From positions 1 through 39,620 of the forward strand of contig JAUCBJ010000846.1 of assembly GCA_032718475.1 (NCBI GenBank): DNA of 39,620 bases, read 5' to 3'. The stretch's first letter is position 1, and each line of letters starts with the position of its first letter. Of this stretch, positions 23 through 23,908 are shown piece by piece. The notes beneath the pieces were generated by a model. The model saw only the letters and a list, made by a program, of their open reading frames with translations. It had not been told where the DNA came from and did not search any database. The position numbers and the translations under genes are program-made. The stretch is from Nemertoderma westbladi. Its lineage: Eukaryota; Animalia; Xenacoelomorpha.

Positions 23-172
23 ATCCCCGCGCCCGCCATACTGACTCCATCTGACTGGGTATGCCATCCCCGCGCCCACCATACTGACTCCATCTGACTG
101 GGTATGCCATCCCCGCGCCCGCCTTACTGACTCCATCTGACTGGGTATTCCATCCCCGCGCCCGCCTTACTG
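23..172. repeat. 43-bp minisatellite, left segment (~3.5 units)
   Basis: Unit CTGACTCCATCTGACTGGGTATGCCATCCCCGCGCCCGCCATA; the array stops abruptly at ...CCTTACTG where the LINE begins. Confidence 0.95.
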
Positions 173-331
173 TTGGGCAATGAAATCTGGATAGTACAGC
201 AGTAATCAGATACTGACCTACTGCAGTCTGGCAATACCGGACCGTTTTTAAATAATTACTATATTTGTCATTATATATTTATACTTTTTGCCTGTGGAGT
301 TCTGGGTGTTTAGATAACTACGATTATCTCT

Positions 332-3300
332 ATGGATAAACTGCGGAAGGCCAGTACTTTACGACTCAAACAATTACTGGAGAAAAATGGCGCGTCATCG
401 TCGGGAAGTCGGGCACAACTACTTATTCGCGCAGATCGCCTATCCATAAAAGGCAAGCTGCATTCTACTAACAGTGGCCTGGATGAAACGAAGGTCCGAA
501 TGGATAGAACGAACTCGCTTTCCAACAACGCATCGGATTCAAATGATACCAACCATGTGAGAAGACCCACCGAACACTTGACCCCTCCAAGGGGACCCAC
601 CGAACCCGGGGTGAGTCCAAGGGGACCATCTGAACCTGGGGTGAGTCCGAAGGGAACCGCCGAACCCGGGGAGAATCCGAGGGGACCCGCTGAACCCGGG
701 GAGAATCTGAGGGGACCCGCCGCACCCGGGGTGAGTCCGAAGGGAACCGCCGAACCCAGGGTGAGTCTGAGGGGACCTGCCGAACCCAGGGTGAATCCGA
801 GGGGACCCGCCGAACCCAGGGTGAATCCAAGGGGACCCGATGAACCCAGGGTTAATCCGAAGGGACCCACCGAACCCGGGGTGAGTCCGAAGAGTACGAG
901 AACCGCCGAACCCGGGGTGAATCCGAGGGGACACGCCGAACCCGGGGTGAGTCCGAAGGGTCCCGCCGAACCCGGGGCGAGTCCGAAGGGTCCCGCCGAA
1001 CCCAGGGAGAATCCGAGGGGACACGCTGAACCCGGGGTGAGTCTGAGGGGACCTGCCGAACCCGGGGTGAATCTAAGGGGACCCGCCGAACCCGGGGCGA
1101 GTCCGAAGGGTCCCGCCGAACCCAGGGAGAATCCGAGGGGACACGCCGAACCCGGGGTGAGTCCGAAGGGTCCCGCCGAACCCAGGGTGAATCCGAGGGG
1201 ACCCGCCAAAACTGGGGTGAATCCAAGGGGAACCGCCGAACCCAGGGTGAATCCGAGGGGACCTGCCAAAACTAGGGTGAGTCCAATGGGACCTGCCGTA
1301 CCAGCGGTGAATCCGAGGGGACCCGCCGAGCCCAGGGTGACTGTGGTGGGACCTGCTGAACCTAGGGCAGCACCAGGGGGAACCACCAAACCTGGGGTGA
1401 ATCCGAGGGGACCCGCCGAACCTGGGGTGAATCCGAGGGGACCCGCCAATCCCGGGGTGAGTCCAAGGGGACCTGCCAAACACGCAGTGAGTAAAATGGG
1501 ACCTGCCGAACCAGGGGTGAATCCGAGGGGACCTGCCGAACCCAGGGTGAATCCGAGGGGACCCGCCGAACCCGGGGTGAGACCAATGGGACCTGCCGAA
1601 CTATGGTTGAATCCGGGGGGACCCGCCGAACCTGGGGTGAATCCGAGGGGACCCGCCGAGCCCGGGGTGAATCCGAGGGGACCCGCCGAACCAGGGGTGA
1701 ATCCGAGGGGACCCGCCGAACCCGCGATGTATCCGAGGGGACCTGCCGAGCCCGGGGTGAATCTGAGGGGACCCGTCGAGCCCGGGGTGACTGTGGCGGG
1801 ACCTCCATGGGTATCTGCCGAACCCAGGACGCTCACAAGGGGTTCTACAATCGTAAAGGACCTGCAGGATGATGGTACTTGGTCCAAAAGAGAATGCTTT
1901 ATTGCTAATGTTGTTAATCCACCATTGTCACCAGATATTTTAGTTCTTCAACATACAGAAGCATATATAGATCCCCCTTTGGACCCAGAGGTTTGGATTG
2001 ACCCCTCACAGTTATTATCTCAGGATCACCTAGCCGAGATAACCCCGAGTAACCATTCAGTGATGAACGCCACTGTACAGTCTGCCCCTAGACAGACACC
2101 AGATGACACTGTAAAAGATGCCCTGAGACATGATTTCGTGATCCCGAGTCCAAAAAAACAGGAACATGAGCTTATCTTATTAGATGACATTGATGATGTG
2201 AGGCCTTGTGGAATACCCTATCCAAATGAAGCCACTGTAATTTTACATCATAATGACAAACGTATACCCCCTGCTACTGATATTAACAAAAGGAAGCAGG
2301 GATCTCTGTTGAATTGGTTGTATCATAATAAAAACATCAATAATCATATGTCAATTAAAGTTCCTGAGATTTCTAGTCCTACCACTGAACAACCACCCCC
2401 TGTATTTCATTCTGAACCACCTGTGAACCTGGATTCAAGTGTAATGGAGCTGATTGACCCTCCTAAGCACCAAGCTTACTCTATGACAACAGATCAAAGC
2501 CATGTAATATCTCATGAACCCACTCTACCGGGTATCGAAGTGGAAGCAGAAATCAACATCCATACAGCTTCAGAAAAGAACAGATCCAGTGGGAGCATAT
2601 TTGATATGCATGAGGTCTGCAATTTTTTCCCTGATATTGAAATTGGATACAATGAGCAAAATATTATTGATGCTGCACTCATGCCAGTTAAAACAACTGG
2701 GCTTACCTTGCTAAAACCTGGTGATATTGATTGGTCATACCTAAAGCCAGGACAGTGGTTTTCAACCACTATCGTGGATTGCTTCCTCTCACTTCTTTCT
2801 AGATCAATGGGCAATGCCTTGTGTGGGATTGACTCTGGGCTATGCTCAAAACTTCAGCAGAAGAGCTTCGATATATCTAGTGCCATCAAATATATCACAG
2901 CAGCATGTGATATATCTAGTACATCCCTGATTTTATTTCCCGACTGCAACGATGCTCATTTTGTCTTACATGTTGCAAATCTTAAAGATAAATCCGTCCG
3001 CACATTGTGCAGCTTGACACCAGCGAAAAAACCGACTAAAAATACACGGATGATTGCCGATCTCCTTAATATGATCAGCAGAGTTAAGGGACAAAAGGAT
3101 AACTGGACCCCAAAAATTTGCTTGAAACCATATCCCTTACAGGAAAATTCCTATGATTGTGGTGGATTTCTGTGCTTATACGCCGTTGCTTTGTGTAATG
3201 GAAGCCCACTACGAGAAGAGTACAAAGACTCTAATCTGCTCCGTAAGTGGATTAAGGCCTGCTTAGAAAATATCAAAGTAGATATTAACTCAAATACAGC

Positions 3301-4837
3301 ACACTTGAAGAATACTTCAATAATATCTCTAGATCCAACTGCTAAAACCTTCAAACCAAAACCCGACAATGGATTCGACTTAAATGTAGGAAGTGACTCT
3401 GAACACAAATCTAGTTTCCCAACCTATAAGGTATACGATCTTGGGCCTCTCCTCATCTGCTCGAAAAAAGAAGCAATAAAAACCCTGAAAGCAGTAACTG
3501 ACATGAAGAAGAAACAAATAAGAGAGCTCTTATTCCAAGACCTAAAACCACTTATGTCACCCACTCAGAGTCTGTGCCTTGAGTTATGTCCAAGAAATAA
3601 TTCACGCGAGTTTGCACTCGATATCTATGAATTGATGCACTCTGTTAAAGATAATACATTATCAGAGCTGTGCAGAAGGCGTTTGAGAAAGGCAGCTACA
3701 AACACTGACTCTAACAATGGATATGAGCAGTTAAAGCAAGACCTAATCACTGCAGTTGCAACACTACAATCAAGAATGTGCAAGGTGGAGAATGAGAATG
3801 ACAGACTTAAGGGCGACAATATAAGACTCAAGGAGGACCTTGAACATGAAAGACACAAACGCATAGTTTTAGAGGCAAAAGTGGAACTCATAGGTAAGAA
3901 AAATTCCACAAACCCCCATGAGAGCAACTGCAGCTCACCACGAACTACCAAATCGCACTCTAGTACATCAACCTACATCGTTCTTGACTCAGTTGACTGC
4001 CCAACCAACACATCTTCTGATGAACCTGACAGCAGTGAGAAAGAAGATTGGTCAGTGCCAAGAAAAACATGCAAACCTATTAGTGAGCGAAAGGTGAGTC
4101 ACGATACATATATGAATCGACTTGGTAACATCTATGAACATCTACCTGATGAGAACAATAAAGGGTCAGCCTTGGTACAAGCAGTACCTAGAATATATTC
4201 CAGTGATCAACTTCAACATGTACACTTCGAGGACATACCAGACTCAAACAAGCCTAGAATTAATGGACAAAAGAGGTTTTCTAGAATTTGGGAAACTGTC
4301 AAGTCTAACCCTTCCAATGATCAGCCCTCCTCTCCTACTGACAGTTCGAACTCTACATATGAGGTGCTTACAAGATACAATAATAAGCCAACACCTTCAG
4401 GACCCAATATACAAGGACATGGATATAGTCGAAAAAAACCCCAGTTCTCTTCACTAAATGTATCAAATAGGGATGCATTTGGTATTGCTGGTTACCCCAA
4501 CTCATATATTGACCATCATAACACACACATCAAAACAAGTCATAGCCCATCATACAGCGGCATGTACTCATATATGTACGTCTCCGGAGTTCACAAACAG
4601 TACGATACTGAGGATCTATTACTCTTCCTGGCCCAGAGGGACATCACAGTCTACTATACAAAAATTTTCACAAAATCCAGGACACACAACTTCAGGATTA
4701 CAGTAGATCCTCATGTTAGAGAGACGCTTTGCCATGATTCGTTTTGGCCATATGGAGTAACATGCCGTGAGTGGATCCCTAATCAAATGCCCCATTACAG
4801 TTCAACTACTAGACCAGTAGGCAGGCACCATTTTTAA
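332..4837 (+). CDS. LINE ORF1p, 1501 aa: SAP-like motif, 10-aa repeats, Ulp1/C48-like peptidase, coiled coil, C-terminal RRM-like domain
   Basis: N-terminal LRLKQLLEKNGASSSGSRAQLLIR (SAP-like). LKPGQWF..., LILFP...HFVL and PLQENSYDCGGFLC (C48 motifs). Heptad-like stretch LQSRMCKVENENDRLKGDNIRLKEDL. C-terminal YMYVSGV...FRITV...FWPYGVTCREW, typical of invertebrate LINE ORF1 ends. Confidence 0.88.
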   Translation: MDKLRKASTLRLKQLLEKNGASSSGSRAQLLIRADRLSIKGKLHSTNSGLDETKVRMDRTNSLSNNASDSNDTNHVRRPTEHLTPPRGPTEPGVSPRGPSEPGVSPKGTAEPGENPRGPAEPGENLRGPAAPGVSPKGTAEPRVSLRGPAEPRVNPRGPAEPRVNPRGPDEPRVNPKGPTEPGVSPKSTRTAEPGVNPRGHAEPGVSPKGPAEPGASPKGPAEPRENPRGHAEPGVSLRGPAEPGVNLRGPAEPGASPKGPAEPRENPRGHAEPGVSPKGPAEPRVNPRGPAKTGVNPRGTAEPRVNPRGPAKTRVSPMGPAVPAVNPRGPAEPRVTVVGPAEPRAAPGGTTKPGVNPRGPAEPGVNPRGPANPGVSPRGPAKHAVSKMGPAEPGVNPRGPAEPRVNPRGPAEPGVRPMGPAELWLNPGGPAEPGVNPRGPAEPGVNPRGPAEPGVNPRGPAEPAMYPRGPAEPGVNLRGPVEPGVTVAGPPWVSAEPRTLTRGSTIVKDLQDDGTWSKRECFIANVVNPPLSPDILVLQHTEAYIDPPLDPEVWIDPSQLLSQDHLAEITPSNHSVMNATVQSAPRQTPDDTVKDALRHDFVIPSPKKQEHELILLDDIDDVRPCGIPYPNEATVILHHNDKRIPPATDINKRKQGSLLNWLYHNKNINNHMSIKVPEISSPTTEQPPPVFHSEPPVNLDSSVMELIDPPKHQAYSMTTDQSHVISHEPTLPGIEVEAEINIHTASEKNRSSGSIFDMHEVCNFFPDIEIGYNEQNIIDAALMPVKTTGLTLLKPGDIDWSYLKPGQWFSTTIVDCFLSLLSRSMGNALCGIDSGLCSKLQQKSFDISSAIKYITAACDISSTSLILFPDCNDAHFVLHVANLKDKSVRTLCSLTPAKKPTKNTRMIADLLNMISRVKGQKDNWTPKICLKPYPLQENSYDCGGFLCLYAVALCNGSPLREEYKDSNLLRKWIKACLENIKVDINSNTAHLKNTSIISLDPTAKTFKPKPDNGFDLNVGSDSEHKSSFPTYKVYDLGPLLICSKKEAIKTLKAVTDMKKKQIRELLFQDLKPLMSPTQSLCLELCPRNNSREFALDIYELMHSVKDNTLSELCRRRLRKAATNTDSNNGYEQLKQDLITAVATLQSRMCKVENENDRLKGDNIRLKEDLEHERHKRIVLEAKVELIGKKNSTNPHESNCSSPRTTKSHSSTSTYIVLDSVDCPTNTSSDEPDSSEKEDWSVPRKTCKPISERKVSHDTYMNRLGNIYEHLPDENNKGSALVQAVPRIYSSDQLQHVHFEDIPDSNKPRINGQKRFSRIWETVKSNPSNDQPSSPTDSSNSTYEVLTRYNNKPTPSGPNIQGHGYSRKKPQFSSLNVSNRDAFGIAGYPNSYIDHHNTHIKTSHSPSYSGMYSYMYVSGVHKQYDTEDLLLFLAQRDITVYYTKIFTKSRTHNFRITVDPHVRETLCHDSFWPYGVTCREWIPNQMPHYSSTTRPVGRHHF
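592..1830 (+). repeat. 30-bp coding tandem repeat in ORF1 (~40 x GPAEPGVNPR-like)
   Basis: Unit GGACCCGCCGAACCCGGGGTGAATCCGAGG; the reading frame is preserved throughout, including a 6-nt insertion near 893. Confidence 0.95.
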
Positions 4838-4877
4838 CACTTGCTTCTTAAATGGACCAACTCGATTATATGACAAC

Positions 4878-7800
4878 ATGTCTCAGCAATATGAAAAAAT
4901 CTCATCTTCTGATTTGGCTACAAGTAACTCTTTTCCCCTCAGCACTATCAAATTGCCTCATTCCACTATTTCAAGCAAGGCAAAAGCATATGGTGTGGAT
5001 CTGTCTTATGGCTCTAGAGGGAACCATCAACAAGATGAAATGGATAGTCTACTGAGACATGAAGATACACAGCAACTAAGGGTTTCAACATACAACTGCC
5101 GTGGTTTTCACACAAGTAGTGATTACATTCTCAAGCTAATGTCCATCAGTGATGTGGTTGCTATTCAAGAGCATTGGCTAGATGCCATTGAGGCTGCTGT
5201 TCTGCTACCAAGTCTACACACTGAGTTTACCTGTGTATATACAACTCATTGTTCATCTGGCAACCCTTACCGTGGAAATGGCGGGGTCGCAATCTGGTAT
5301 AGACATAAAATACTTCATGGAGTCACACAAGTAGAATCAGGTCCTGACATTATTGGAATACATGGAAATATAAAGAATGGCAATCCTGTTATTTTACTAT
5401 CCTGTTATGCTCCTGATAGCTCAAAACCTTGTGATACATTTGAAGATTTCCTTGGGAGATTATCTGCTGTAATAAACTCACATCATGACGCAATCCCAAT
5501 AATCTTAGCTGACACAAACTCTGATGTTGGACCAATGCAGGGACCTCGCTTCGGCAGAAATACAGCCACACCAAGGGGTAAACGTCTGAACAGCTTCCTA
5601 TCAATGAATAATATTTTTTGTGCTGATACATCTGAATGGTTCACAGGCCCTTGCATCACTTTTAAGGGTCATGGTTCCTCCTATATTGACCATATACTAA
5701 CAAGTGAAAGTGGAATGGAGTGTCTATCCCATGGTTTTGTTCTTGAAAGAGACCCTGTTGAAAACTATTCAGATCACTCACCACTCATTGCTTACTTCAA
5801 ATTTCCCCAGAATATCACTTTGGGTAGTGCAAGAAGCGGGGCTGCCAGGGACAAACAGAATACTACAAATACTATACGGTTCTGCTGGGAAAGAGTGACA
5901 AAAGTGCAACAAGAACGCTATGATCAACTTGTCAATGTTGGCATTACAAACCTTCAATCATTAAGTAACAAACCACATGTTTACTGGACTTCAACAGACC
6001 TCAATGATTTCAGTAATGAGCTGCAAAACATAATTTACAAAGCTGCAATATCAGCACTACCAATAATGAAGAAAACTCGCATTACTAAGAATATTCGGGT
6101 CCGGTCTAATGCATTGAAGGAGAGGTCAAAAACTACCAAGGACCTTTTCAAACTGTGGTGCAGGAGAGATAAGGAAGACCCTATGCTTGAGAAGGCCTAC
6201 AAAGATTCAAAAAGGTCTGTCAGACGAATGAAAAACTGGTTATCAAAAAATATTGTTTCCAATGAAGTGAATCGGAAATCAAAGCTCCTGAATAGGGATC
6301 CTAAGAGGTTTTGGCGTAACTTCAAATCATCATCACCAGCAGCCCCTCCCCCACAAGTACAGGAAAGCATCAAATGTAGTCTTTATAAAGAACACTCTAC
6401 TGGTACTATGGAGAATGAAAATCTGGTCAAACTGTCAAACGACCTTTACAAAGCCAGCACCCAAGCAGAGGTCCCAACAGTATCACCAAACACCATCAAA
6501 AGGGCAATATTGGCGCTCTCCAAAGGGAAGGCCCCTGATAAGACATCACTAGTTGTTGAACATCTCCTTTGCATTGAGCCTAGCCATATTTGTCAGGTTC
6601 TAGCAGACATTATAAATGCGTGTTTCAGGCTTGGTGACGTTCCAAGTGTATTCGGGGAAACCGTAGTCTCTCATCAGCACAAAGGTAAGGGTCGCGATCC
6701 ACTCATTCGCAAGTCATATCGCCCAATCTCGATCGTTAATCTATTTGCCAAGATAATGGAATCTGTAGTGCTCTCCGAATACTTATCGATTGTGTTACCT
6801 GAACTTGTCTCTCCATCGCAATTGGCATACCAACGGAAAATTGGGTCAGATCTCATCCTAGCTGCAGTGCTAGAATGTTTGGAATCGCAGCATTCAAAAG
6901 GTAATGCTATATTCCTGTGTCAGCTCGATGTTTCATCAGCTTTCGACAATGTTGATCACTTTACCCTGTTCAACAAACTCAAGGACCATCTCAATCCACA
7001 TATTTGCCTAATGCTTCTTGCATATTACCAATGCACAGTAGTATTTCTGAAGTTTGGAGCAGATATATCCATGATGGGTATCTTCTTATCTAAGGGAGTA
7101 AAACAAGGGTCACTTCTCTCGCCAATTTTCTATAATTTCTACACCAGTGATGTTCTTAAAGCCTTGAAAGATGCTGGATACGACTGTGATGCATGCACCC
7201 TCTGGCTTAGCACAATTGCATATGCGGATGATATTCTAATAATGGGCAAATCTAGTGCTGAGGTTGAACATCAAATCAATATAATCATGGACGAACTTGA
7301 GAAAGTATGCTTGGAAGTTGAGAATAGTAAAACAAACTGGATATTTATACTTCCACATGGTGTCAGCAGCTCATCAGTTCCAACATTTATCAACGTAAAA
7401 GGCACATTGTTACCGCCACAACAGCATCTTACCTTTCTTGGATTTAAACTACAAAATGCCAGAACGTCTGCTGATGCTTTGGCTGATTGTATACAGTTGA
7501 TTGCATCCATCGCCGAATCCTTTCGGAGAAAAGGTTGGACTTCACGATGGCTCAATACTCATATACTGAGCCACCTCTGGTCCTCCATTGCCCTGCCTAC
7601 AATCATCTATAGTGCAAGGTTTATGGTTGGACGAATGACGAGCGGGGATAGAAACAAACTTGATACATACCATCGAAAGGCACTGAGGGGTCTTCTACAT
7701 TTGGGAACGTATGCTAGTAACTCGATAATATACAAACTGATGAAATGCCGACCTATTACCTCTGATGCATTTGCAGCTTCTATAGGCACTATAATTCGCA

Positions 7801-8135
7801 TATCTACGTGCCCTAATGCAATCTTACAAAGTCTATTGCGTATATCACTTCACAGGAACGCAAGACGAGCAGATTCCAGAAGTCAAAATCATTATATCGG
7901 GATTGGATCAACATATTATAATTGCCGTGAGTCATTTCCTGTTCCCTGCATAGTCTCTTTACTCACATACCAATACAGCAAATTGGATCTCATCTCTCGA
8001 CTGAACCTGGGTTCCCTGTCCGTCGGTGAGACAGCTCAGTGTGACTTCATTAATAATTGTTACAACGATATTTATAGTACATCCCCATTCAACACCCGAC
8101 ATAGTCGAATAATCGAATTTTTCAACACAATATAA
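4878..8135 (+). CDS. LINE ORF2p, 1085 aa: AP-endonuclease plus reverse transcriptase
   Basis: APE motifs STYNCRG, IQEHW, GGVAI, ADTN, SYIDH, SDHSP. RT motifs KAP, YRPIS, LDVSSAFDNVDH, GVKQGSLLSP, AYADD, FLG. No RNase H motif recognised. Confidence 0.95.
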   Translation: MSQQYEKISSSDLATSNSFPLSTIKLPHSTISSKAKAYGVDLSYGSRGNHQQDEMDSLLRHEDTQQLRVSTYNCRGFHTSSDYILKLMSISDVVAIQEHWLDAIEAAVLLPSLHTEFTCVYTTHCSSGNPYRGNGGVAIWYRHKILHGVTQVESGPDIIGIHGNIKNGNPVILLSCYAPDSSKPCDTFEDFLGRLSAVINSHHDAIPIILADTNSDVGPMQGPRFGRNTATPRGKRLNSFLSMNNIFCADTSEWFTGPCITFKGHGSSYIDHILTSESGMECLSHGFVLERDPVENYSDHSPLIAYFKFPQNITLGSARSGAARDKQNTTNTIRFCWERVTKVQQERYDQLVNVGITNLQSLSNKPHVYWTSTDLNDFSNELQNIIYKAAISALPIMKKTRITKNIRVRSNALKERSKTTKDLFKLWCRRDKEDPMLEKAYKDSKRSVRRMKNWLSKNIVSNEVNRKSKLLNRDPKRFWRNFKSSSPAAPPPQVQESIKCSLYKEHSTGTMENENLVKLSNDLYKASTQAEVPTVSPNTIKRAILALSKGKAPDKTSLVVEHLLCIEPSHICQVLADIINACFRLGDVPSVFGETVVSHQHKGKGRDPLIRKSYRPISIVNLFAKIMESVVLSEYLSIVLPELVSPSQLAYQRKIGSDLILAAVLECLESQHSKGNAIFLCQLDVSSAFDNVDHFTLFNKLKDHLNPHICLMLLAYYQCTVVFLKFGADISMMGIFLSKGVKQGSLLSPIFYNFYTSDVLKALKDAGYDCDACTLWLSTIAYADDILIMGKSSAEVEHQINIIMDELEKVCLEVENSKTNWIFILPHGVSSSSVPTFINVKGTLLPPQQHLTFLGFKLQNARTSADALADCIQLIASIAESFRRKGWTSRWLNTHILSHLWSSIALPTIIYSARFMVGRMTSGDRNKLDTYHRKALRGLLHLGTYASNSIIYKLMKCRPITSDAFAASIGTIIRISTCPNAILQSLLRISLHRNARRADSRSQNHYIGIGSTYYNCRESFPVPCIVSLLTYQYSKLDLISRLNLGSLSVGETAQCDFINNCYNDIYSTSPFNTRHSRIIEFFNTI

Positions 8136-8362
8136 GTGAGCCATCTACCTACAGCTCTATACCGTAACATTTTAATTATTTATCAGTGTCAACAGAAAAT
8201 TTATACTTCATGTCTGTCAAGTCTGATAATTACGAACTAACTTTAATCTATGTCTTATTAATTTAATGTTATACCGGTACTTTTTATCAGGTGTGTACAA
8301 AAATTTTAATTATATATCATTTTAGATGATTAAATAAATAAATAAATAAAATAAATAAAATA

Positions 8363-9191
8363 ACTGACTCCATCTGACCCGGTATGCCATCCCCGCGCCC
8401 GCCATACTGACTCCATCTGACTGGGTATGCCATCCCCGCGCCCACCATACTGACTCCATCTGACTGGGTATGCCATCCCCGCGCCCGCCTTACTGACTCC
8501 ATCTGACTGGGTATTCCATCCCCGCGCCCGCCTTACTGACTCCATCTGACCCGGTATGCCATCCCCGCGCCCGCCATACTGACTCCGTTTGACCTAGTAT
8601 GCCATCCCCGCGCCCGCCATACTGACTCCATCTGACTAGGTATGCCATCCCCGCGCCCGCCTTACTGACTCCATCTGACTCGGTATGCCATCCCCGCGCC
8701 CGCCATACTGACTCCATCTGACCTAGTATGCCATCCCCGCGCCCGCCATACTGACTCCATCTGACTGGGTATGCCATCCCTGCGCCCGCCATACTGACTC
8801 CATCTGACTGGGTATGCCATCCCCGCGCACGCCATACTGACTCCATCTGACTGGGTATGCCATCCCCGCGCCCGCCATACTGACTCCATCTGACTGGGTA
8901 TGCCATCCCCGCGCCCGCCATACTGACTCCATCTGACTGGGTATGCCATCCCCGCGCCCGCCATACTGGCTCCATCTGACTGGGTATGCCATCCCCGCGC
9001 CCGCCATACTGACTTCATCTGACTGGGTATGCCATCCCCGCGCCCGCCATACTGACTCCATCTGACTGGGTTTGCCATCCCCGCGCCCGCCCTACTGACT
9101 CCATCTGACTGGGTTTGCCATCCCCGCGCCCGCCCTACTGACTCCATCTGACTGGGTATGCCATCCCCGCGCCCGCCATACTGACTCCATC
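8363..9191. repeat. 43-bp minisatellite, right segment (~19 units)
   Basis: Same unit as 23-172, with point variants. Confidence 0.95.
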
Positions 9192-9774
9192 CTGTTAATG
9201 TTTTGATTATTTTTTGGTTGTTTTGGTTTTTATGTCTAATCAATAAATATTATCTTCATAATTCTCGAATTGTTTCACAACATTATTATTTATGTGTCGG
9301 TTTGTTTGTTTCATCTGATTCTTGGCGTTACCACCACTTTAGATGCTAAAGTAATGTGATACTGACTCGAGTGCCAAATATCTTTGAGGTAGTTAAACCT
9401 CAATTTATGGCACAATACAGGCCAATAGTAATATTAATAATTGAGCTAATAAATAATTTATTAATCAATTTTATCCATTTATTTAAAAGTAAATAGTTTT
9501 ATCGAAATCTCTGAAATCAAAAATCAATAACTACAGTTGCCCTTTCTGCGTTTGACACGGCAACATATGATTATAGTAACTAGGTATTTGTTGGAAACAA
9601 TTTTTTAATCTTTAATCCTGTTGGTAATATTATATAAATAATTGTATCTGTAGGATCTGTCCATGACCTACTATAACAGTAGTGTTATAGTAGGTCATGA
9701 TCTGTCGCTTACTAGTCTGTGTCTGTTTGAATTATCTACAATATATAACTTGTAATTTAATATTTGAGTCGAAT

Positions 9775-10301
9775 ATGTCAAATAAAGTGTCAGTAATTCT
9801 ATGGATTTTGTTCACCGTTCATCTGGAGTGCGCGAAATCACAGGAAAAATGCAAAACCTGCTCCCCCCAAACCGTCTGCCCCCAACTGTCGCTAAAGTCG
9901 GTAGACCAGCAGCCCGTGAAGTGTGTGTCGACATCCTTCGAGTGCGACCACATTACCGACTGTGATGACGGATCCGACGAGAGTGTTGCTACTTGCGGAG
10001 ACAAGGTCTCGAGATCCCAGATTCTTAGCCCTGCGCAATGGTGCCCAGTGTTCAACCACCCGATATACTCAACCAGAGCCGCCGAGGCAGAATCCCGCGA
10101 AGTTCCCTTCCCTTGGAGAAATTTTGGACTTTTCCGTAGTGAAATGAATCAGCCTTTTTTCTGTAATGTGCAGAAAAGTTGCAGCAACAGATCTGCCTTG
10201 TCAAATAATCCACCATTTTGTGAAGGGGAAGAGGGAGAGGAGGGAGAGGGAGGAAGTGGCTGTTTTGGAGATGGCCCTCGTTATGTACCACAAGCTTTCC
10301 G
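9775..10301 (+). CDS. Secreted LDLa-like/Cys-rich protein, exon 1 (signal peptide plus first LDLa-like module)
   Basis: ATG followed by MSNKVSVILWILFTVHLECAKS (signal-like); FECDHITDCDDGSDE; donor GTAAGT at 10302, phase 2. Confidence 0.8.
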
Positions 10302-10643
10302 GTAAGTTATTATTTTACATTATTTTATAAAACTATTTGAGATGTTTGGCTGTTAACATGCGTAAGAGGCTTTAAAATGCTTTGTGTGGCATTTTATGTT
10401 CTAAAAAATTGTAGTATCTATCAATTTGTAGAACCGCCCGCTTTTAGGTATTATTGTGAAAAGACGATGGCGAAATTGCAATTGAAATACAATTATTACA
10501 CCACTCCTAATACACAATACTGAAGATACCCTGCGGACGTTTAAGATAAAGACACACATAAGTATAATAAGTACACAGGTTTCCCATATTACAGTAATAA
10601 TATTAATCTAATTTAGTTTCTTAAATTAACTTTATATTATTAG

Positions 10644-10990
10644 ATGCGACTATTTGGAGGATTGCGATGATGGTTCTGATGAGCAGTTTTGCGGTTGGAT
10701 AAACATTGTTGAACATCCCTTAATTAGTTCGAGAGGTGCGATACCTCCATCGGAATGGTGTAAATCAGATATACAACTGGTTGATCGCATCAATTCCATC
10801 AAATGCCAACCCCAACAAACCTGCAGCGTTGGTGTGGCAATCAATGGATATCCAAAATTGTTGGTTCCAAACTCTGCTGTTTGTGATGTTTACAAAGATT
10901 GCTTTCAATCCGAAAGTTTTTCTCCTCAGGACGAAACTAGTGATGCTTGTTCTATACTTCCATCGTGGTCTAGCCCGAAGTCTTCCAATG
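10644..10990 (+). CDS. Secreted LDLa-like protein, exon 2
   Basis: Acceptor TTATTAG; splicing restores AFR|CDYLEDCDDGSDEQFC; further module CDVYKDC...QDE; donor GTTAGT, phase 1. Confidence 0.85.
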
Positions 10991-11279
10991 GTTAGTTTAA
11001 TAGATTATAACATTGCTGCAACATTTGATCATTCGTTTTGTGGTGACGTCACGGCAGCAACACTTTGTGAGTCGAACGTATTGCGAGTGATTGTCGCACA
11101 GCAGTAGGGTGACGGTTCAGTGGTATCTGATAAAAACATTAGTTTTGTAATTAAATTATATTTAATTAACATTGTTATTTACAATAAATTTTATTAATTT
11201 TATTTATTCAAATTACACCAATTGCATTATAGGCCAGTTGCATTTCAATAAGTTAATATTAAAGTGTTTTTTTTTTCAG

Positions 11280-12007
11280 GACTATTAGAACAATGTGGAG
11301 CGAACGCTGATCCCTGGACTTTGGTTCAATCTTCTACTTGGTGTTCTAGTGGGGTCGGTTTCCCTGCACTAGGTTCCGAAACCATCTCACTGCGGTGCGT
11401 TCCTTTACCCGAATGTCGGGAAGGCGTTCCACAATCGACACCCCTACAAGCGAGTTTCTACCAGTGTAATGGAGCTTACGATTGTGTGGACCACTCTGAC
11501 GAGTTGTGTCAAGTTTGTGTTCATAAAACGCAGGAGTGCAGCCCGCCCGCCCCACCGACAACGACACCGGTACCCACCCCTGGACCCACTGTTCCACCAC
11601 CAGTACAGAGTGAGAAGCAATGCTACCAATGGAACTACCATTGCACACTGACAAAGAAATCCAGAACCGACTCCAACCCTATTATTACTTGCGTTGACTC
11701 CAGCAATAGAGTCTTAGATCCATCCATTGTAGATATGAAGGGAGCATCTTTATGTAAACCGGAGACCTCCTGTTATAGATTCATTGATTATGCGCAGAAC
11801 ACAGATGGGACATTATTTACCTTGACATCTGTGGCGGGATGCGACACTCATTGTAACAATGAGGAATTCGTTCACTACCTGAAAGACGACAATCCTTGTC
11901 GAAGTTACTTACCTGAGTTTGCCGGTCTGAGTGACGCCAATCTTTGTCTTCGTGTCTGCTGTGCAGCGATGGAAGACGAGTCGTGTAATAAAGTCACCTA
12001 CCCATAA
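11280..12007 (+). CDS. Secreted LDLa-like protein, exon 3 (LDLa module, Pro/Thr linker, Ly6/uPAR-like Cys domain, stop)
   Basis: Acceptor T(n)CAG, phase 1; CNGAYDCVDHSDELC; PPAPPTTTPVPTP; CYQ...CCAAMEDESCN; ATTAAA at 12085. The spliced CDS is 1602 nt, i.e. 533 aa. Confidence 0.85.
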
Positions 12008-14716: not shown

Positions 14717-15678
14717 TTCTTTATCTCACAGTTACGTTAACTTTATTTATCTCATGCTCAGGGTACAGTTACTTTATCTCACATGTATATATTTATTTTA
14801 TCTCTTAATACTGTTTATTTACTTTATATGTTAGCACCTTTTACTTTATATGTTAGCACCTTTTACTTTATATGTTAGCACCTTTTACTTTATCTCACTG
14901 TGGATACTTTATCTCATGTAATGTATACATTATCCTGTAGATGTTTTCATTGCGTTATACATTATCCCTGTTTTCGTTTTACTTTTTATCACTGTTCCCG
15001 TTTAATGACAGATGGACTTATTCTATACATTATGCCTAACAGTAGATGATGCAGTATTGTTGCTTGGTGACGGGTTGTGACAGAGTCTAGTTGCTAAGCT
15101 ACAAGGACTTCTTATCACTTTAACAGTGCTGTTTACTTTATCACTTTACCGTTTACTTTATGTCACTGTACCGTTTACTTTATATCACTGTATCGCTTAC
15201 TTTATTTCGCAGTGCTGTTTACTTTATATCACCGTAGAGTTTACTTTATCTCACAGTGCTGTTTACTTTATCTCGTAGCACTGTTTATTTTGTATATCAC
15301 AGTAGTGTTTACTTTATCTCACAGTGCTGTTTACTTTATCTCACAGTGCTGTTTACTTTAGATCAATGTACCGTTTACTTTATCTCACAGTGCTGTTTAC
15401 TTTATATCACTGTAACGCTCAGTTTATCTCACAGTGCTGTTTACTTTATCTCACAGTGCTGTTTACTTTATCACACAGTGCTGTTTACTTTATCTCGTAG
15501 CACTGTTTATTTTGTATATCACAGTAGTGTTTACTTTATCTCACAGTGCTGTTTACTTTATCTAACAGCGCTGTTTACTTTATCTCACAGTGCTGTTTAC
15601 TTTATATCAATGTACCGTTTACTTTATCTCACAGTGCTGTTTACTTTATCTCACTGTAACGTTTACTTTATCTCACAG
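14717..15678 (+). repeat. 22-bp intronic tandem repeat ending in the splice acceptor (TGCTGTTTACTTTATCTCACAG)
   Basis: ~25 well-conserved units at ~15120-15678, with degenerate relatives at 14717-14920 (including 3 x TTTTACTTTATATGTTAGCACC). Confidence 0.9.
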
Positions 15679-15868
15679 TACACGGTTTCATATAAACGAC
15701 CGGGGGACGACTCTGAGATGGACATGGTTGTTACCCACCCGTCTGTTGTCATAGACCAAGGTCTCACGCCGTTTACAGAGTATTCCTTCCGAGTTATCGC
15801 TAAAAACAAATACGGCTCTGCAGCCATGACAGCGGCTAATGAAGTAACAGCGAGAACGGACCCAGCTG
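15679..15868 (+). CDS. NEO1: Neogenin/DCC exon, FN3-2 second half
   Basis: YTVSYK...GLTPFTEYSFRVIAKNKYG...TARTDPA; phase 0 in, phase 1 out; donor GTTAGT. Confidence 0.9.
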
Positions 15869-18800
15869 GTTAGTACAGCCATAACAGTGGCTAATGAAGT
15901 AACAGCGAGAACGGACCCAGCTGGTTAGTACAGCCATAACAGCGGCTAATGAAGTAACAGCGAGAACGGACCCAGCTGGTTAGTACAGCCATAACAGCGG
16001 CTAATGAAGTAACAGCGAGAACGGACCCAGCTGGTTAGTACAGCCATAACAGCGAGAACGGACCCAGCTGGTTAGTACAGCCATAACAGCGGTTAAGGAA
16101 GTAACAGCGAGAACGGACCCAGCTGGTTAGTACAGCCATAACAGTGAGAACGGACCCAGCTGGTTAGTACATCCATAACAGCGGTTAAGGAAGTAACAGC
16201 GAGAACGGACCCAGCTGGTTAGTACAGCCATAACAGCGGTTAAGGAAGTAACAGCGAGAACGGACCCAGCTGGTTAGTACAGCCATAACAGTGGCTAAGG
16301 AAGTAACAGCGAGAACGGACCCAGCTGGTTAGTACAGCCATAACAGCGGCTAATGAAGTAACAGCGAGAACGGACCCAGCTGGTTAGTACAGCCATAACA
16401 GCGGCTAATGAAGTAACAGCGAGAACGGACCCAGCTGGTTAGTACAGCCATAACAGCGGTTAAGGAAGTAACAGCGAGAACGGACCCAGCTGGTTAGTAC
16501 AGCCATAACAGTGAGAACGGACCCAGCTGGTTAGTACATCCATAACAGCGGTTAAGGAAGTAACAGCGAGAACGGACCCAGCTGGTTAGTACAGCCATAA
16601 CAGCGGTTAAGGAAGTAACAGCGAGAACGGACCCAGCTGGTTAGTACAGCCATAACAGTGGCTAATGAAGTAACAGCGAGAACGGACCCAGCTGGTTAGT
16701 ACAGCCATAACAGTGAGAACGGACCCAGCTGGTTAGTACATCCATAACAGCGGTTAAGGAAGTAACAGCGAGAACGGACCCAGCTGGTTAGTACAGCCAT
16801 AACAGTGGCTAATGAAGTAACAGCGAGAACGGACCCAGCTGGTTAGTACAGCCATAACAGCGGCTAATGAAGTAACAGCGAGAACGGACCCAGCTGGTTA
16901 GTACAGCCATAACAGCGGCTAATGAAGTAACAGCGAGAACGGACCCAGCTGGTTAGTACAGCCATAACAGCGGTTAAGGAAGTAACAGCGAGAACGGACC
17001 CAGCTGGTTAGTACAGCCATAACAGTGAGAACGGACCCAGCTGGTTAGTACATCCATAACAGCGGTTAAGGAAGTAACAGCGAGAACGGACCCAGCTGGT
17101 TAGTACAGCCATAACAGCGGTTAAGGAAGTAACAGCGAGAACGGACCCAGCTGGTTAGTACAGCCATAACAGCGGTTAAGGAAGTAACAGCGAGAACGGA
17201 CCCAGCTGGTTAGTACAGCCATAACAGTGGCTAATGAAGTAACAGCGAGAACGGACCCAGCTGGTTAGTACAGCCATAACAGTGGCTAATGAAGTAACAG
17301 CGAGAACGGACCCAGCTGGTTAGTACAGCCATAACAGCGGTTAAGGAAGTAACAGCGAGAACGGACCCAGCTGGTTAGTACAGCCATAACAGTGAGAACG
17401 GACCCAGCTGGTTAGTACATCCATAACAGCGGTTAAGGAAGTAACAGCGAGAACGGACCCAGCTGGTTAGTACAGCCATAACAGCGGTTAAGGAAGTAAC
17501 AGCGAGAACGGACCCAGCTGGTTAGTACAGCCATAACAGCGGTTAAGGAAGTAACAGCGAGAACGGACCCAGCTGGTTAGTACAGCCATAACAGTGGCTA
17601 ATGAAGTAACAGCGAGAACGGACCCAGCTGGTTAGTACAGCCATAACAGCGGCTAATGAAGTAACAGCGAGAACGGACCCAGCTGGTTAGTACAGCCATA
17701 ACAGCGGCTAATGAAGTAACAGCGAGAACGGACCCAGCTGGTTAGTACAGCCATAACAGCGGTTAAGGAAGTAACAGCGAGAACGGACCCAGCTGGTTAG
17801 TACAGCCATAACAGTGGCTAATGAAGTAACAGCGAGAACGGACCCAGCTGGTTAGTACAGCCATAACAGCGGTTAAGGAAGTAACAGCGAGAACGGACCC
17901 AGCTGGTTAGTACAGCCATAACAGTGAGAACGGACCCAGCTGGTTAGTACATCCATAACAGCGGTTAAGGAAGTAACAGCGAGAACGGACCCAGCTGGTT
18001 AGTACAGCCATAACAGCGGTTAAGGAAGTAACAGCGAGAACGGACCCAGCTGGTTAGTACAGCCATAACAGCGGTTAAGGAAGTAACAGCGAGAACGGAC
18101 CCAGCTGGTTAGTACAGCCATAACAGCGGTTAAGGAAGTAACAGCGAGAACGGACCCAGCTGGTTAGTACAGCCATAACAGTGAGAACGGACCCAGCTGG
18201 TTAGTACATCCATAACAGCGGTTAAGGAAGTAACAGCGAGAACGGACCCAGCTGGTTAGTACAGCCATAACAGCGGTTAAGGAAGTAACAGCGAGAACGG
18301 ACCCAGCTGGTTAGTACAGCCATAACAGCGGTTAAGGAAGTAACAGCGAGAACGGACCCAGCTGGTTAGTACAGCCATAACAGTGGCTAATGAAGTAACA
18401 GCGAGAACGGACCCAGCTGGTTAGTACAGCCATAACAGCGGCTAATGAAGTAACAGCGAGAACGGACCCAGCTGGTTAGTACAGCCATAACAGCGGCTAA
18501 TGAAGTAACAGCGAGAACGGACCCAGCTGGTTAGTACAGCCATAACAGCGGTTAAGGAAGTAACAGCGAGAACGGACCCAGCTGGTTAGTACAGCCATAA
18601 CAGTGGCTAATGAAGTAACAGCGAGAACGGACCCAGCTGGTTAGTACAGCCATAACAGCGGTTAAGGAAGTAACAGCGAGAACGGACCCAGCTGGTTAGT
18701 ACAGCCATAACAGTGAGAACGGACCCAGCTGGTTAGTACAGCCATAACAGTGGCTAATGAAGTAACAGCGAGAACGGACCCAGCTGGTTAGTACAGCCAT

Positions 18801-20814
18801 AACAGCGGTTAAGGAAGTAACAGCGAGAACGGACCCAGCTGGTTAGTACAGCCATAACAGTGAGAACGGACCCAGCTGGTTAGTACATCCATAACAGCGG
18901 TTAAGGAAGTAACAGCGAGAACGGACCCAACTGGTTAGTACAGCCATAACAGCGGTTAAGGAAGTAACAGCGAGAACGGACCCAGCTGGTTAGTACAGCC
19001 ATAACAGCGGTTAAGGAAGTAACAGCGAGAACGGACCCAGCTGGTTAGTACAGCCATAACAGTGGCTAATGAAGTAACAGCGAGAACGGACCCAGCTGGT
19101 TAGTACAGCCATAACAGCGGCTAATGAAGTAACAGCGAGAACGGACCCAGCTGGTTAGTACAGCCATAACAGCGGCTAATGAAGTAACAGCGAGAACGGA
19201 CCCAGCTGGTTAGTACAGCCATAACAGGGGTTAAGGAAGTAACAGCGAGAACGGACCCAGCTGGTTAGTACAGCCATAACAGCGGCTAATGAAGTAACAG
19301 TGAGAACGGACCCAGCTGGTTAGTACAGCCATAACAGGGGTTAAGGAAGTAACAGCGAGAACGGACCCAGCTGGTTAGTACAGCCATAACAGGGGTTAAG
19401 GAAGTAACAGCGAGAACGGACCCAGCTGGTTAGTACAGCCATAACAGGGGTTAAGGAAGTAACAGCGAGAACGGACCCAGCTGGTTAGTACAGCCATAAC
19501 AGGGGTTAAGGAAGTAACAGCGAGAACGGACCCAGCTGGTTAGTACAGCCATAACAGCGGCTAATGAAGTAACAGCGAGAACGGACCCAGCTGGTTAGTA
19601 CAGCCATAACAGCGGCTAATGAAGTAACAGCTAGAACGGACCCAGCTGGTTAGTACAGCCATAACAGCGGCTAATGAAGTAACAGCGAGAACGGTCCCAG
19701 CTGGTTAGTACAGCCATAACAGCGGCTAATGAAGTAACAGCGAGAACGGACCCAGCTGGTTAGTACAGCCATAACAGCGGCTAATGAAGTAACAGCGAGA
19801 ACGGACCCAGCTGGTTAGTACAGCCATAACAGCGGTTAAGGAAGTAACAGCTAGAACGGACCCAGCTGGTTAGTACAGCCATAACAGTGGCTAAGGAAGT
19901 AACAGCGAGAACGGACCCAGCTGGTTAGTACAGCCATAACAGCGGCTAATGAAGTAACAGCGAGAACGGACCCAGCTGGTTAGTACAGCCATAACAGCGG
20001 CTAATGAAGTAACAGCGAAAACGGACCCAGCTGGTTAGTACAGCCATAACAGCGGCTAATGAAGTAACAGCGAGAAAGGACCCAGCTGGTTTAGTACAGC
20101 CATAACAGCGGCTAATGAAGTAACAGCGAGAACGGACCCAGCTGGTTAGTACATCCATAACAGCGGTTAAGGAAGTAACAGCGAGAACGGACCCAGCTGG
20201 TTAGTACAGCCATAACAGCGGCTAATGAAGTAACAGCGAGAAAGGACCCAGCTGGTTTAGTACAGCCATAACAGCGGCTAATGAAGTAACAGCGAGAACG
20301 GACCCAGCTGGTTAGTACATCCATAACAGCGGTTAAGGAAGTAACAGCGAGAACGGACCCAGCTGGTTAGTACAGCCATAACAGCGGCTAATGAAGTAAC
20401 AGCGAGAAAGGACCCAGCTGGTTAGTACAGCCATATCAGGGGTTAAGGATGTAACAGCGAGAACGGACCCAGCTGGTTAGTACAGCCATAACAGCGGCTA
20501 AGGAAGTAACAGCGAGAACGGACCCAGCTGGTTAGTACAGCCATAACAGCGGTTAAGGAAGTAACAGCGAGAACGGACCCAGCTGGTTAGTACAGCCATA
20601 ACAGCGGTTAAGGAAGTAACAGCTAGAACGGACCCAGCTGGTTAGTACAGCCATAACAGTGGCTAAGGAAGTAACAGCGAGAACGGACCCAGCTGGTTAG
20701 TACAGCCATAACAGCGGCTAATGAAGTAACAGCGAGAACGGACCCAGCTGGTTAGTACAGCCATAACAGCGGCTAATGAAGTAACAGCTAGAACGGACCC
20801 AGCTGGTTAGTACA
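15821..20814 (+). repeat. 55-bp tandem array (~94 units, about 10 of them 37-bp deletion variants) derived from the exon 3' end plus donor
   Basis: Unit CAGCCATAACAGCGGCTAATGAAGTAACAGCGAGAACGGACCCAGCTG|GTTAGTA; the first copy overlaps the exon. Confidence 0.97.
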
Positions 20815-21078
20815 AACAGTTAATGCGGCATTGCGAAACATTTAAACGGACGTGTGTGGGACGCTTCGCGCAGTACGTCAATAACAAAGCAGCAGGATAG
20901 TTTTCTACTAAACTGTTTCGTGTTCCTGTCGCAAACTAATCGTAATATAGTAGACACATACACACTACACAGACAGACATAAACTCACAAACAAGGACCC
21001 CATCCTCTAGGTAATAGTCGCTCCACATTATTTTTTTTTAATGTTGATTATTTGTGTAACTCGTCATCTTTCTTCCAG

Positions 21079-21216
21079 TTCCAGTCGGCGCACCGAGGGA
21101 CGTGACTCTGGAAGTTTTATCGTCGACTCAAATAAAAGTTAAATGGCGGACGCCGCCCGAGAATGAAAATAATGGACCGATTACACATTACAAGATTAAG
21201 TACAAAGTGGTTGGTG
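21079..21216 (+). CDS. NEO1: Neogenin/DCC exon, FN3-3 first half (absent from the ORF track)
   Basis: VPVGAPRDVTLEVLSSTQIKVKWRTPPENENNGPITHYKIKYK; TTCCAG acceptor, GTAAGT donor. Confidence 0.9.
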
Positions 21217-21578
21217 GTAAGTAATACTTAGACATATCATAATAATTAATGTCTCTATTGATATTATTTCTATATATCATGTGATAGACATTGGTACAAT
21301 GATAAAAGCTTTACTGTCAATGATAATGTGGCATTGCAAGTTTCATTTTTTATGTGTTTGTTTATATTTCGGTAAAATATCCTTGTTAAGACCAGCAGAC
21401 CAGTTCATATAAATGTAAAATGCATAAAAAGTTGCTTTTCTGCAATGATAAAACACATAAAACATTGGCTGCGCAATAGTAAAAGGTCTCGAAAGGATCT
21501 TTTTTATAGCGAGCTTTGGTTTTATATTTTTAAATTAATTAATATTATATAATGTAATTAATCTTGGTTTTGTTTCAG

Positions 21579-21752
21579 CTCCCAAGGATACCAATAAGGT
21601 GGTATCAACGGCCTCCAAAGTCCGCGAATACACTTTAACTAATCTCGATAAAGGGGAGACTTACGGGGTCAGAGTGATAGCCGTAAACAGCGTTGGTCAA
21701 GGGCCAGCCAGTAAAAACGAGCAAGCCAAGACATTCCACACGGACCTTAAAG
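21579..21752 (+). CDS. NEO1: Neogenin/DCC exon, FN3-3 second half
   Basis: YTLTNLDKGETYGVRVIAVNSVGQGPAS...TFHTDLK; TTTCAG acceptor, GTTCGT donor. Confidence 0.88.
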
Positions 21753-22124
21753 GTTCGTTATGGTCTATCATTGAATGCCCTTCCGTTCACAGCACAATGT
21801 TGTACGGGACAAGGGCTAAACTAATATTTAGTGAATTAGCAGTAACTAGTTACATCGGAGTGATTTGATTAAAGAAGAGTCTTTGCCGACTGACTTAAAT
21901 ATATTTAGTAAACCTGATTTTCTTATGGCTATAATTATTATGTTGTTTACCATTGATTGTCATCTGGATTTTATTAACAAATTTAATTGTCATAGACCTA
22001 GCCTACAAAATTTCGTTCGCATTAGGAGAATTAGGAGAAAATTATTTATTAGGACATTACGATTTTATTTTTCAATTTTTTTATTTTAATCTACGAATGT
22101 TATTGTTTCTCTTCCCTCACATAG

Positions 22125-22675
22125 AAGTGGACGCGCCGGGTAAACCCGATAAATTCGATCGCATCGAACTTTGGTCCAACGCGATCCGACTCCGGTGGAC
22201 TCCGCCGCCGAATGCGGCCCACACCGTGATCCGGTACTACACGATCAACTGGGGGGCCCCCACCCCGGACCACCGCAGCGTACGGATCGAGCACCTCGAC
22301 AGTCTGGAGTACACGATCACCGGCCTGGAGCCCCTCACCCTCTACACGGTCGCCGTGACCGCCGTTAATAAGGCGGGCCCGGGAGAGAGTCGATTGTTTC
22401 AGTTTCGCACGCTCAGTAAGGAAGACGACCCGGGGCAAGAAGAACTCTCGATACCGCACGGAGTCAACGTGGAAGTTCACTCGTCGAGCATCGTTAAGGT
22501 CAGCTGGGTGGACCGCGACGCTTCCACCAAGGGCCGGCGTAGAGATCGCGGCCGCTATTACACCGTTAAGTACGAGACCAACTACCCCGCGGATACGTTG
22601 CCTAGTTACCTGAACTGCAGCGAGACGAGTTGCCTTGTCGACGGGTTGAGACCCGCCACTTGGTACTCCTTCCAG
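22125..22675 (+). CDS. NEO1: Neogenin/DCC exon, FN3-4 and most of FN3-5
   Basis: APGKP...IRLRWTPP...YTINWG...LEPLTLY; VSWVD...RYYTVKY...LRPATWYSFQ. Confidence 0.92.
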
Positions 22676-23051
22676 GTCAGTGCACCTCTACTCTGTTAGA
22701 GATGGCTTTGTTATTCTACTATTCTCTACTAAATTATTCTTTTAGGTAAAATTATTTGTTCTTTACTTCACTCCCACACAACATAAAACGACAGTATTTT
22801 TTTTAATTTAATTTATAACTCCCGTTTGTAACTCTATTATCCTGGTATGACACACAATTTGCTTTTGCTTAATGGATTGTTTGGGCCCGAAGGACTCGTA
22901 TAATATTCAATATAAAAATGCAATAAAGCTAATAAATTCAATAAAACTACACCCAACATGATTAGACTAAAATATTAAAATGAAATCATGAGAGCGATTC
23001 GGGGTATTATAATTTCCAATGTAATTAATAATGTAAAATATGTTCTAACAG

Positions 23052-23375
23052 GTGAAGGTAACAGAGTCGGAACGCTCTAGTCTGTACAGCATGGTGGCTG
23101 AAGGCCAGACGCTGGAGGCGCCGCCCAGTAACAGCCCAGCGGGGCGTCCGCGCGCCCTAACGCCCATCGAATCGCCGGACGACCCGCGAACCGTCATCCT
23201 CAACTGGATGTCCCCGCTAGAACCCAACGGCGTTATCACCGGCTACATCGTTCTCTACACCGCGGATGTGCTACTGGAACCCCATCAGTGGATCATTGAG
23301 CCGGTTCTCGGTCCCGTCATGTCCGAAGAGATCTCCAGCCTCTCCTTGGGAACTACTTATTATTTTAAGATTCAG
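23052..23375 (+). CDS. NEO1: Neogenin/DCC exon, end of FN3-5 and FN3-6
   Basis: TLEAPP...VILNWMSPLEPNGVITGYIVLYTAD...WIIEPVLG...TTYYFKIQ. Confidence 0.93.
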
Positions 23376-23522
23376 GTAAGAATCCTTGCGAATCGTAGGT
23401 CCCGAGAAGTTTAATTTATTTTTTTACACGTTTATATTTCCACACCTATAATCTCTATACTCAACATAATAAAGTGATTAATAATTTTACCCTCAGTAAT
23501 TTCCTCTTCTTCCCCGTCGTAG

Positions 23523-23637
23523 GCCAACAACGCCAAGGGGGAGGGCCCATTCTCTGATGTTGTTAATTACACGACCCCTAAAGCTGCCAGTGGCTCCTCC
23601 AATGTCGCTTTGGGCGCTGACCTCGATTCAACCGACG
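23523..23637 (+). CDS. NEO1: Neogenin/DCC exon, end of FN3-6 and stalk
   Basis: ANNAKGEGPFSDVVNYTTPK; GTAAGT donor, phase 1. Confidence 0.9.
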
Positions 23638-23908
23638 GTAAGTCACTTTATCAACCTACGTCGTTATAGTTGGTAGATGAACTGTTAGTAGTTGATATTC
23701 AAAGTGTATTTTTTAATTATATTTATTTAAGGAGCACTTTTTGTCTATTTGACACTGTTTAATTATTTTTATCACCTGTTTCCCCATGTGAATTTTAAAG
23801 AAAACAACATAAGTTTGCGAACAAAATATTGATATTTTACATTATGTTTAATTTCATTTCTTTTAATAACTATTTAATATTGCTGTTTATTATGTTTGTC
23901 TCATTCAG

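Follow-up and report, generated by a model that had tools for sequence, protein, structure and literature searches.

A Ulp1/SENP-fold C48 domain in ORF1 of an APE-type LINE from Nemertoderma westbladi

An intact LINE inserted in a 43-bp satellite

The window analysed here is a stretch of 39,620 nt of Nemertoderma westbladi DNA (contig JAUCBJ010000846.1), and its left end is occupied by a full-length APE-RT LINE embedded in a 43-bp satellite (Table 1). To the right lie exons with LDL-receptor class A cysteine repeats (9694-12007), from a probable secreted or surface protein gene, and exons of a neogenin/DCC-like gene (15800-25330), whose FN3 domains are recognized by Pfam and whose C-terminal motif we take to be the neogenin P3 region; such a gene is indicative of a bilaterian host. 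A 5-kb tandem array of about 84 units of 55 bp (15821-20814) starts where a fibronectin-type exon frame (15238-15873) ends. Each unit contains the last codons of the exon frame and then GTTAGT, which resembles a 5' splice site; duplicated exon ends with their donors may thus occur dozens of times within the intron. MITE-like inverted repeat pairs are found at 25957-26536 (34 nt, 94%) and 28206-28673 (65 nt, 97%), and a BEL/Pao retrotransposon frame of 2066 aa (33335-39535; DUF1759, Peptidase_A17) ends before an integrase match, near the window end.

Table 1. Positions of the LINE, its reading frames and domains, and the flanking satellite in the window
Feature	Position	Strand	Remark
43-bp satellite, left flank	23..172	.	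TRF; exact second copy of the 150 bases at 8389
Target-site duplication ACTG, left copy	169..172	+	
Full-length APE-RT LINE	173..8362	+	8190 bp
5' untranslated region	173..331	+	5' junction to first ATG
ORF1	332..4837	+	1501 aa, stop-free
SAP-like N-terminus (hint)	332..461	+	Pfam SAP E 0.0023, 17.9 bits versus cut-off 23.9
40 coding repeats of 30 bp	586..1790	+	10 aa, Pro/Gly-rich
C48 (Ulp1/SENP) protease domain	2714..3286	+	aa about 795-985
Trp809, lid Trp	2756..2758	+	SENP1 Trp465; kept
His876 and Phe877	2957..2962	+	His876 catalytic, kept
Cys893 at triad-acid position	3008..3010	+	codon TGC
Gln937 to Cys943	3140..3160	+	oxyanion hole to nucleophile, kept
Predicted coiled coil, ORF1 core	3728..3892	+	aa 1133-1187; coiled-coil families E 0.025-0.06, heptad-like sequence
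RRM-like C-terminal domain, inferred	4571..4774	+	beta-alpha-beta-beta-alpha-beta pattern by eye
ORF2 frame	4821..8135	+	1104 aa, stop-free; first ATG 4878
APE endonuclease in ORF2	5088-5777	+	Pfam Exo_endo_phos E 1.5e-15
RT in ORF2, with YADD	6708-7451	+	Pfam RVT_1 E 9.3e-27
(TAAA)n-like tail	8331..8362	+	
Right ACTG copy (8363-8366) plus 43-bp satellite	8363..9191	.	19 units; TRF and sequence

The satellite has a four-unit (172-bp) higher-order pattern, and the LINE insertion lies 150 bp from the edge of the array. An empty satellite junction with a single ACTG is found uninterrupted at 8519. Together with the 4-bp ACTG duplication, this uninterrupted junction indicates that the whole element, protease domain included, was inserted as a unit. 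The catalytic motifs of the APE and RT domains were located in ORF2 and are intact. Inspection of the ORF2 sequence revealed neither a CCHC/zinc-knuckle nor a restriction-like PD-(D/E)xK pattern 3' of the RT. Judged from its sequence, the host element is an APE-type LINE and does not belong to the NeSL/Utopia clade, as an APE endonuclease is present. ORF2 is distant from everything searched, with 8 matches at 1e-10 among 7992 candidates (21-28% identity), the best being a sea-urchin protein (22% over 824 aa). The two share motifs that we take to be RTEX-like (EH before RT domain 1, HKGKG, and LW...LP...Y), a likeness to the RTEX clade of the RTE group. The RT tree proposed in the earlier note for placing the clade was built from 10 rows with no named RTEX references; it sets this RT on a long branch without a resolved grouping. 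No match was found among phage records or in Rfam.

The element was found in three public sequencing runs of two studies (X1, X2, and X3), of which X1 may be the source of the window and X2 comes from the other study; runs X4 and X5 have next to no cover of it, and no RNA data set is among the holders listed. A single X2 contig spans 1800-8330 and so covers everything from the C48 domain through ORF2; it shows 8 differences. In X3, a contig that enters the element from foreign sequence at 4601 represents a 5'-truncated copy. Among the contig ends listed, forks in X1 lie at 3177, 4601, and 7605, and contig depth, which is not a copy number, rises toward the 3' end (24.5, 40.6, 52, and 83.4); the fork at 3177-3206, inside the C48 coding region, may reflect a 5'-truncated copy. 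The truncated copies and the 3' rise in depth fit a young family with few copies, and the element itself is intact and was mobile recently. X1 and X3 share the 5' satellite junction of the window and may therefore represent one locus; no second full-length locus was seen among the matches listed for X1, X2, and X3. In X2, a contig of low depth passes from the element into foreign sequence at 212; it is either a second near-full-length insertion or an artefact. The putative protease domain is likely present family-wide.

Between samples, three coding differences outside the triad fall within the C48 domain (one silent, two amino-acid changes), with no selection signal either way, and the 5' untranslated region carries a 6-bp deletion in X3. 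The window differs from all three runs in ORF2 at 5050, 5261, 7208, and 7449; three of these differences are silent, and the fourth, upstream of the endonuclease, is a Leu/Pro change. X1, X2, and X3 all contain a sister version of the ORF1 start (327-461; 16 differences, 88%), and the 7 differences listed for it include five silent codons and one amino-acid change. Further sister pieces, which may or may not belong with the ORF1 piece, match parts of the RT; none at 85% covers the C48 or APE region among the matches listed. This sister LINE-like sequence sits on contigs of higher depth than the family described here.

The C48 domain and its active site

ORF1 runs from the SAP-like start through the repeats, a low-complexity linker, the C48 domain, and the coiled coil to the RRM-like end. 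The SAP-like start has no PDB match, and the 10-aa repeats are likely a flexible linker. An antisense ORF (310-1947) was rejected as a gene, being accounted for by the coding repeat. The RRM-like assignment rests in part on what we take to be an ORF1 motif; the region has no Pfam or PDB match and an Atlas score of 0.92 to unnamed arthropod proteins, while aa 1030-1200 score below 0.9 in Atlas. Word-index searches returned no relatives of the ORF1 core among proteins of 397-1264 aa and none of ORF1 over its C48 region among proteins of 825-2627 aa.

The earlier note, made from the letters alone, had proposed a Ulp1/SENP-like protease captured in ORF1 of an APE-type LINE. The analysis supports this: ORF2 encodes APE and RT, and ORF1 carries a Ulp1/SENP-fold C48 domain in one frame ahead of its core. 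In the whole ORF1, Pfam Peptidase_C48 matches aa 808-967 above the cut-off (E 2.3e-4, 21.5 bits versus 20.7), and the domain alone reaches E 4.9e-6 and 27 bits. Sixteen of the 18 matches in a PDB sequence search (E up to 10) are Ulp1/SENP chains, the best being yeast Ulp1 (1euv, E 3.1e-9). An exhaustive phmmer search of 1.84 billion cluster representatives gave 163 matches with an E of 0.001 or less, none of which reached 1e-10. The 58 of 150 phmmer matches chosen for profile scanning, the best and longer ones, belong to the C48 family in 56 cases and carry RT or APE families in none. The score of our domain (21-27 bits) is far below the 51-164 bits of these 56, and no other part of ORF1 is matched by any of 158 phmmer-hit proteins.

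The structure prediction called for earlier likewise gave a SENP fold. The model, built on 98 C48 sequences, has a pLDDT of 88 and leans on that alignment, the single-sequence model reaching only pLDDT 35. Its closest fold is SENP5 (Z 24.0, rmsd 1.9, 184 aligned residues), and SENP3, SENP1 (22.6), SENP2, and Ulp1 complete a range of Z 20.6-24.0. A NEDD8 protease scores lower (Z 18.3), as do the viral maturation proteases ASFV pS273R (Z 13.2) and poxvirus I7L (Z 11.9). In the structural alignments, identity to cellular SENP1/2/3/5 and yeast Ulp1 is 17-22%, and overall identity is below 30% to any relative, a divergence of about 70%.

We mapped SENP1 residues onto the domain by motif. LKPGQW starts at aa 804 (nt 2741), and on recheck this motif, His876, Gln937 (nt 3140), and Cys943 (nt 3158) proved correctly identified and numbered in the earlier note. 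Its spacings also hold, with 6 residues from Gln to Cys and 67 from His to Cys, against 70 between His533 and Cys603 of SENP1 (PMC10882314, partial text). What it had missed is the loss of the triad acid and the change of four substrate-site residues; its reading of a C48 protease stands for His, Gln, Cys, and the lid Trp. At the position of SENP1 Asp550 the domain has Cys893, and 150 matches have Asp in 132 cases, Asn in 11, and Cys in 4. Trp follows the catalytic His in 142 of the 150; here it is Phe877 at the position of SENP1 Trp534, so that the floor Trp is lost. Thr812 stands at the position of SENP1 Asp468, Gly836 at that of Phe496, where none of the 150 matches has Gly, and a Tyr at that of Trp512, presumably a substrate-site residue. 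Only 1 of 141 full-length matches is changed at all five checked positions (468, 496, 512, 534, and 550). The roles of Trp465 and Trp534 in SENP1 are described in PMC5030089, and the triad and binding-site residues in PMC10882314, a review according to which triad mutation abolishes SENP1 activity (partial text of both). By its residues at the triad Asp and at the Trp and contacts of the Gly-Gly channel, the domain is not a canonical SUMO protease.

Of 12 columns conserved in at least 90% of 141 full-cover matches, 11 are kept in the domain, and the next conservation class is kept at 15 of 28 columns (median of the matches, 20). That 11 of the 12 top columns persist at less than 30% identity points to selection on the active site. 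The codon of Cys893 is two changes away from an Asp codon and shows no difference among those listed in X1, X2, and X3 (two studies); Cys893 therefore cannot be put down to an error in this copy. Unrelated C48 proteins also have Cys in place of the triad acid (P0026, P0099, P0118, and P0120; PMC4640811 S5 Fig).

Related domains and the origin of the capture

The earlier statement that Ulp1-like domains occur in the RLE element NeSL, in Ginger1, and in Mutator was confirmed (PMC4640811 and PMC2836005, partial text). NeSL and Utopia-1_TSP, both RLE elements with Ulp1-like domains (PMC4640811, partial text), are, like our element, non-LTR retrotransposons with an N-terminal Ulp1-like domain and a variable triad acid. 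In PMC4640811 S5 Fig, counted by eye, 7 of 12 NeSL/Utopia domains have Asp at the triad-acid position, 3 have Asn, and 2 have Cys, whereas cellular enzymes have Asp in 10 of 10. Retrotransposon-borne C48 domains thus appear, from these sequences, often to relax the triad acid, and since 5 of the 12 have Cys or Asn, the change does not imply a dead enzyme. Two further states are shared with NeSL: a Cys two residues after a conserved Pro (11 of 11 NeSL domains; Cys872 here) and an Asp before the SENP1-Phe496 motif (10 of 11; Asp834 here), which occur together in 2 of 150 matches. The NeSL/Utopia elements differ in having an RLE and generally one ORF, with the protease on the RT polyprotein, whereas here there are an APE and two ORFs, with the protease in ORF1; they also have His-Trp in 12 of 12 domains, where ours has His-Phe. 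No description of NeSL/Utopia protease activity was found in the literature examined, part of it as partial text.

Ginger1 and Mutator transposases carry Ulp1 domains, accompanied by PHD, and transposon Ulp1/OTU domains have been proposed in the case of Ginger1 to act in transposition (PMC2836005, partial text). These transposon-borne C48 domains are a possible donor class, but they lie C-terminal to a DDE transposase and not on the RNA-binding protein of a retrotransposon (same partial text). Cellular SENP1/2/3/5 and yeast Ulp1 share with our domain the fold, the His-Cys spacing, the Gln, and the lid Trp, and differ at the triad Asp and the SUMO-contact residues. Zisupton elements pair SAP with Ulp1 domains and differ in being DNA transposons; our literature search for Zisupton with SAP plus a SUMO protease found nothing. 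Dualen/RandI encodes a Josephin-like cysteine protease, but this protease belongs to a different family and is part of the element's single ORF. These elements combine an APE with an RLE (PMC4640811, partial text).

The enzymes known from ORF1 of APE LINEs are esterases (PMC3905857 and PMC5408684, partial text). Those of CR1, L2, and RTEX resemble the present case in that an enzyme was captured into ORF1 with its active-site residues kept, and differ in being SGNH esterases with demonstrated activity, where ours is a predicted protease (PMC3905857, partial text). Literature searches over listings and the openings of abstracts returned no C48 domain in ORF1 of an APE LINE, although the combination may already be catalogued in Repbase, Dfam, or Repbase Reports. 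The ORF1 types of 448 Jockey, CR1, and L2 elements include RRM, CCHC, PHD, and esterase (PMC4120745, partial text); the words protease, peptidase, Ulp1, and SUMO are absent from the available main text of that paper, and the first three also from its three supplements. The available main text and searchable supplements of PMC5203782 contain none of the terms looked up, the available text of PMC6431247 and PMC5753468 has no mention of Ulp1, and that of PMC11203168 and PMC5678591 adds nothing further on the question. What appears to be new is a Ulp1 domain in ORF1 of an APE LINE, such domains being known in RLE LINEs and DNA transposons. Two metagenome loci were also compared, which we take to be L1/Tx1-like elements, and neither showed a protease-like ORF by eye. 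The metagenome contig L002 (568-5311) has a CCHC-type ORF1, unrelated to the protease finding.

The domain matches the rest of the element in composition, with a GC content of 0.41 and a GC3 of 0.40 versus 0.42 and 0.39 for the RT. No contig matching the C48 domain at 85% or more, as a donor would, is among the run matches listed. The domain sits on a long branch (1.76 changes per column). FastTree groups it with transposase-like matches (0.89, 0.76), and a more careful tree of 49 selected rows sets it outside the cellular SENP/Ulp1 cluster with modest support (87/81) and has no starred set that contains it, so that the trees single out no donor. On the best reading, the lineage is still mobile and took up the domain long ago, its source being probably another mobile element (a DNA transposon or a NeSL-type LINE) and not a host SENP gene. 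Cys872 and Asp834, very few residues, would hint at a NeSL-type donor.

Possible roles of the domain in ORF1

We tentatively favour an atypical SUMO/ubiquitin-like Cys-His isopeptidase, an old capture carried on the RNP and acting on host chromatin proteins, and we rate this as possible, at somewhat less than an even chance. Each functional step is one that we infer. The coiled coil and the RRM-like end would let ORF1p coat the element RNA, the SAP-like tip would bind DNA, and the repeat linker would give the protease reach to neighbouring proteins. The protease would free host chromatin proteins of SUMO or a related tag, and the local loss of SUMO would ease insertion into, or transcription from, heterochromatin such as the 43-bp satellite. 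This reading is favoured because the catalytic core has been conserved, SUMO proteases have the closest folds, and flies require SUMO for heterochromatin and for transposon repression, transposons being derepressed when it is lost (PMC10363806, partial text). Against it stand the eroded SUMO face, the abolition of SENP1 activity by triad mutation noted above, the low Pfam score, and the SAP match below the cut-off. Knockdown of host Ulp1 in fly cells raised R1/R2 expression (PMC7676866, partial text), so that silencing does not necessarily weaken as deSUMOylation increases.

With its triad acid and floor Trp gone and its element inserted in a satellite, the domain might instead be a pseudo-protease of little or no activity, which would bind SUMO or another tag as a trap or a tether to SUMO-rich heterochromatin, or would serve as a structural module. 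We consider this unlikely: here the SUMO-binding face has eroded and the nucleophile, the His, and the oxyanion Gln persist, which is the opposite of what a binding-only domain should show. Self-processing, as raised in the earlier note, would have the protease cut the 1000-aa extension from the ORF1 core or trim ORF2p in the manner of viral CE-clan proteases. The substrate face no longer looks SUMO-specific, the viral maturation proteases named above have the same fold, and the extension doubles the usual size of ORF1. Yet ORF1 contains only three Gly-Gly pairs, two in the repeats and one in the active-site motif; the single Gly-Gly of ORF2 lies inside the endonuclease; and no Gly-Gly, Ala-Gly, or Ser-Gly occurs at aa 975-1060, between the domain and the core. 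The candidate self-processing role draws weak support from these sequences, and we hold it improbable.

A passenger domain, captured once and decaying, would keep its frame for no other reason than that a stop would cost the element the downstream ORF1 core. The long branch, the low profile score, the many departures from consensus residues, and the low copy number are in keeping with this, as are sister-family contigs that match the SAP-like start and the RT and not C48 among the matches listed. The sister gap is uninformative, however, because the endonuclease region equally has no listed sister piece, and the invariant catalytic motifs have survived the divergence from all relatives, which leaves the passenger with little weight in our assessment. 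Far less credible still is a one-off chimera or assembly artefact, in which a single LINE copy would have gained a piece of a DNA transposon by insertion or joining. Its case is that X1 and X3 share the 5' junction of the window with no second full-length locus in sight; it is countered by the single open frame of 1501 aa, the contig of the other study that spans 1800-8330, the target duplication that brackets the whole element, and the lack of a close donor among the matches.

A bolder form of the isopeptidase reading, which we regard as doubtful, is an APE LINE lineage with a DNA-tethered deSUMOylase ORF1 that acts as a counter-defence at its own insertion site, the module having come from an RLE retrotransposon or a DNA transposon. 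A SAP hook, a 400-aa repeat arm, and a dyad protease would then together clear SUMO from heterochromatin. An ORF1 with a protease would add a new type to those known, and it would show that RLE LINEs, DNA transposons, and APE LINEs each recruited the same enzyme independently. In LINE particles, ORF1p is normally the protein present in abundance. This abundance would make the family a good system for studying the role of transposon Ulp1 domains and their possible counteraction of SUMO-dependent silencing, and the recurring change from Asp to Cys or Asn in retroelement C48 copies is testable in itself.
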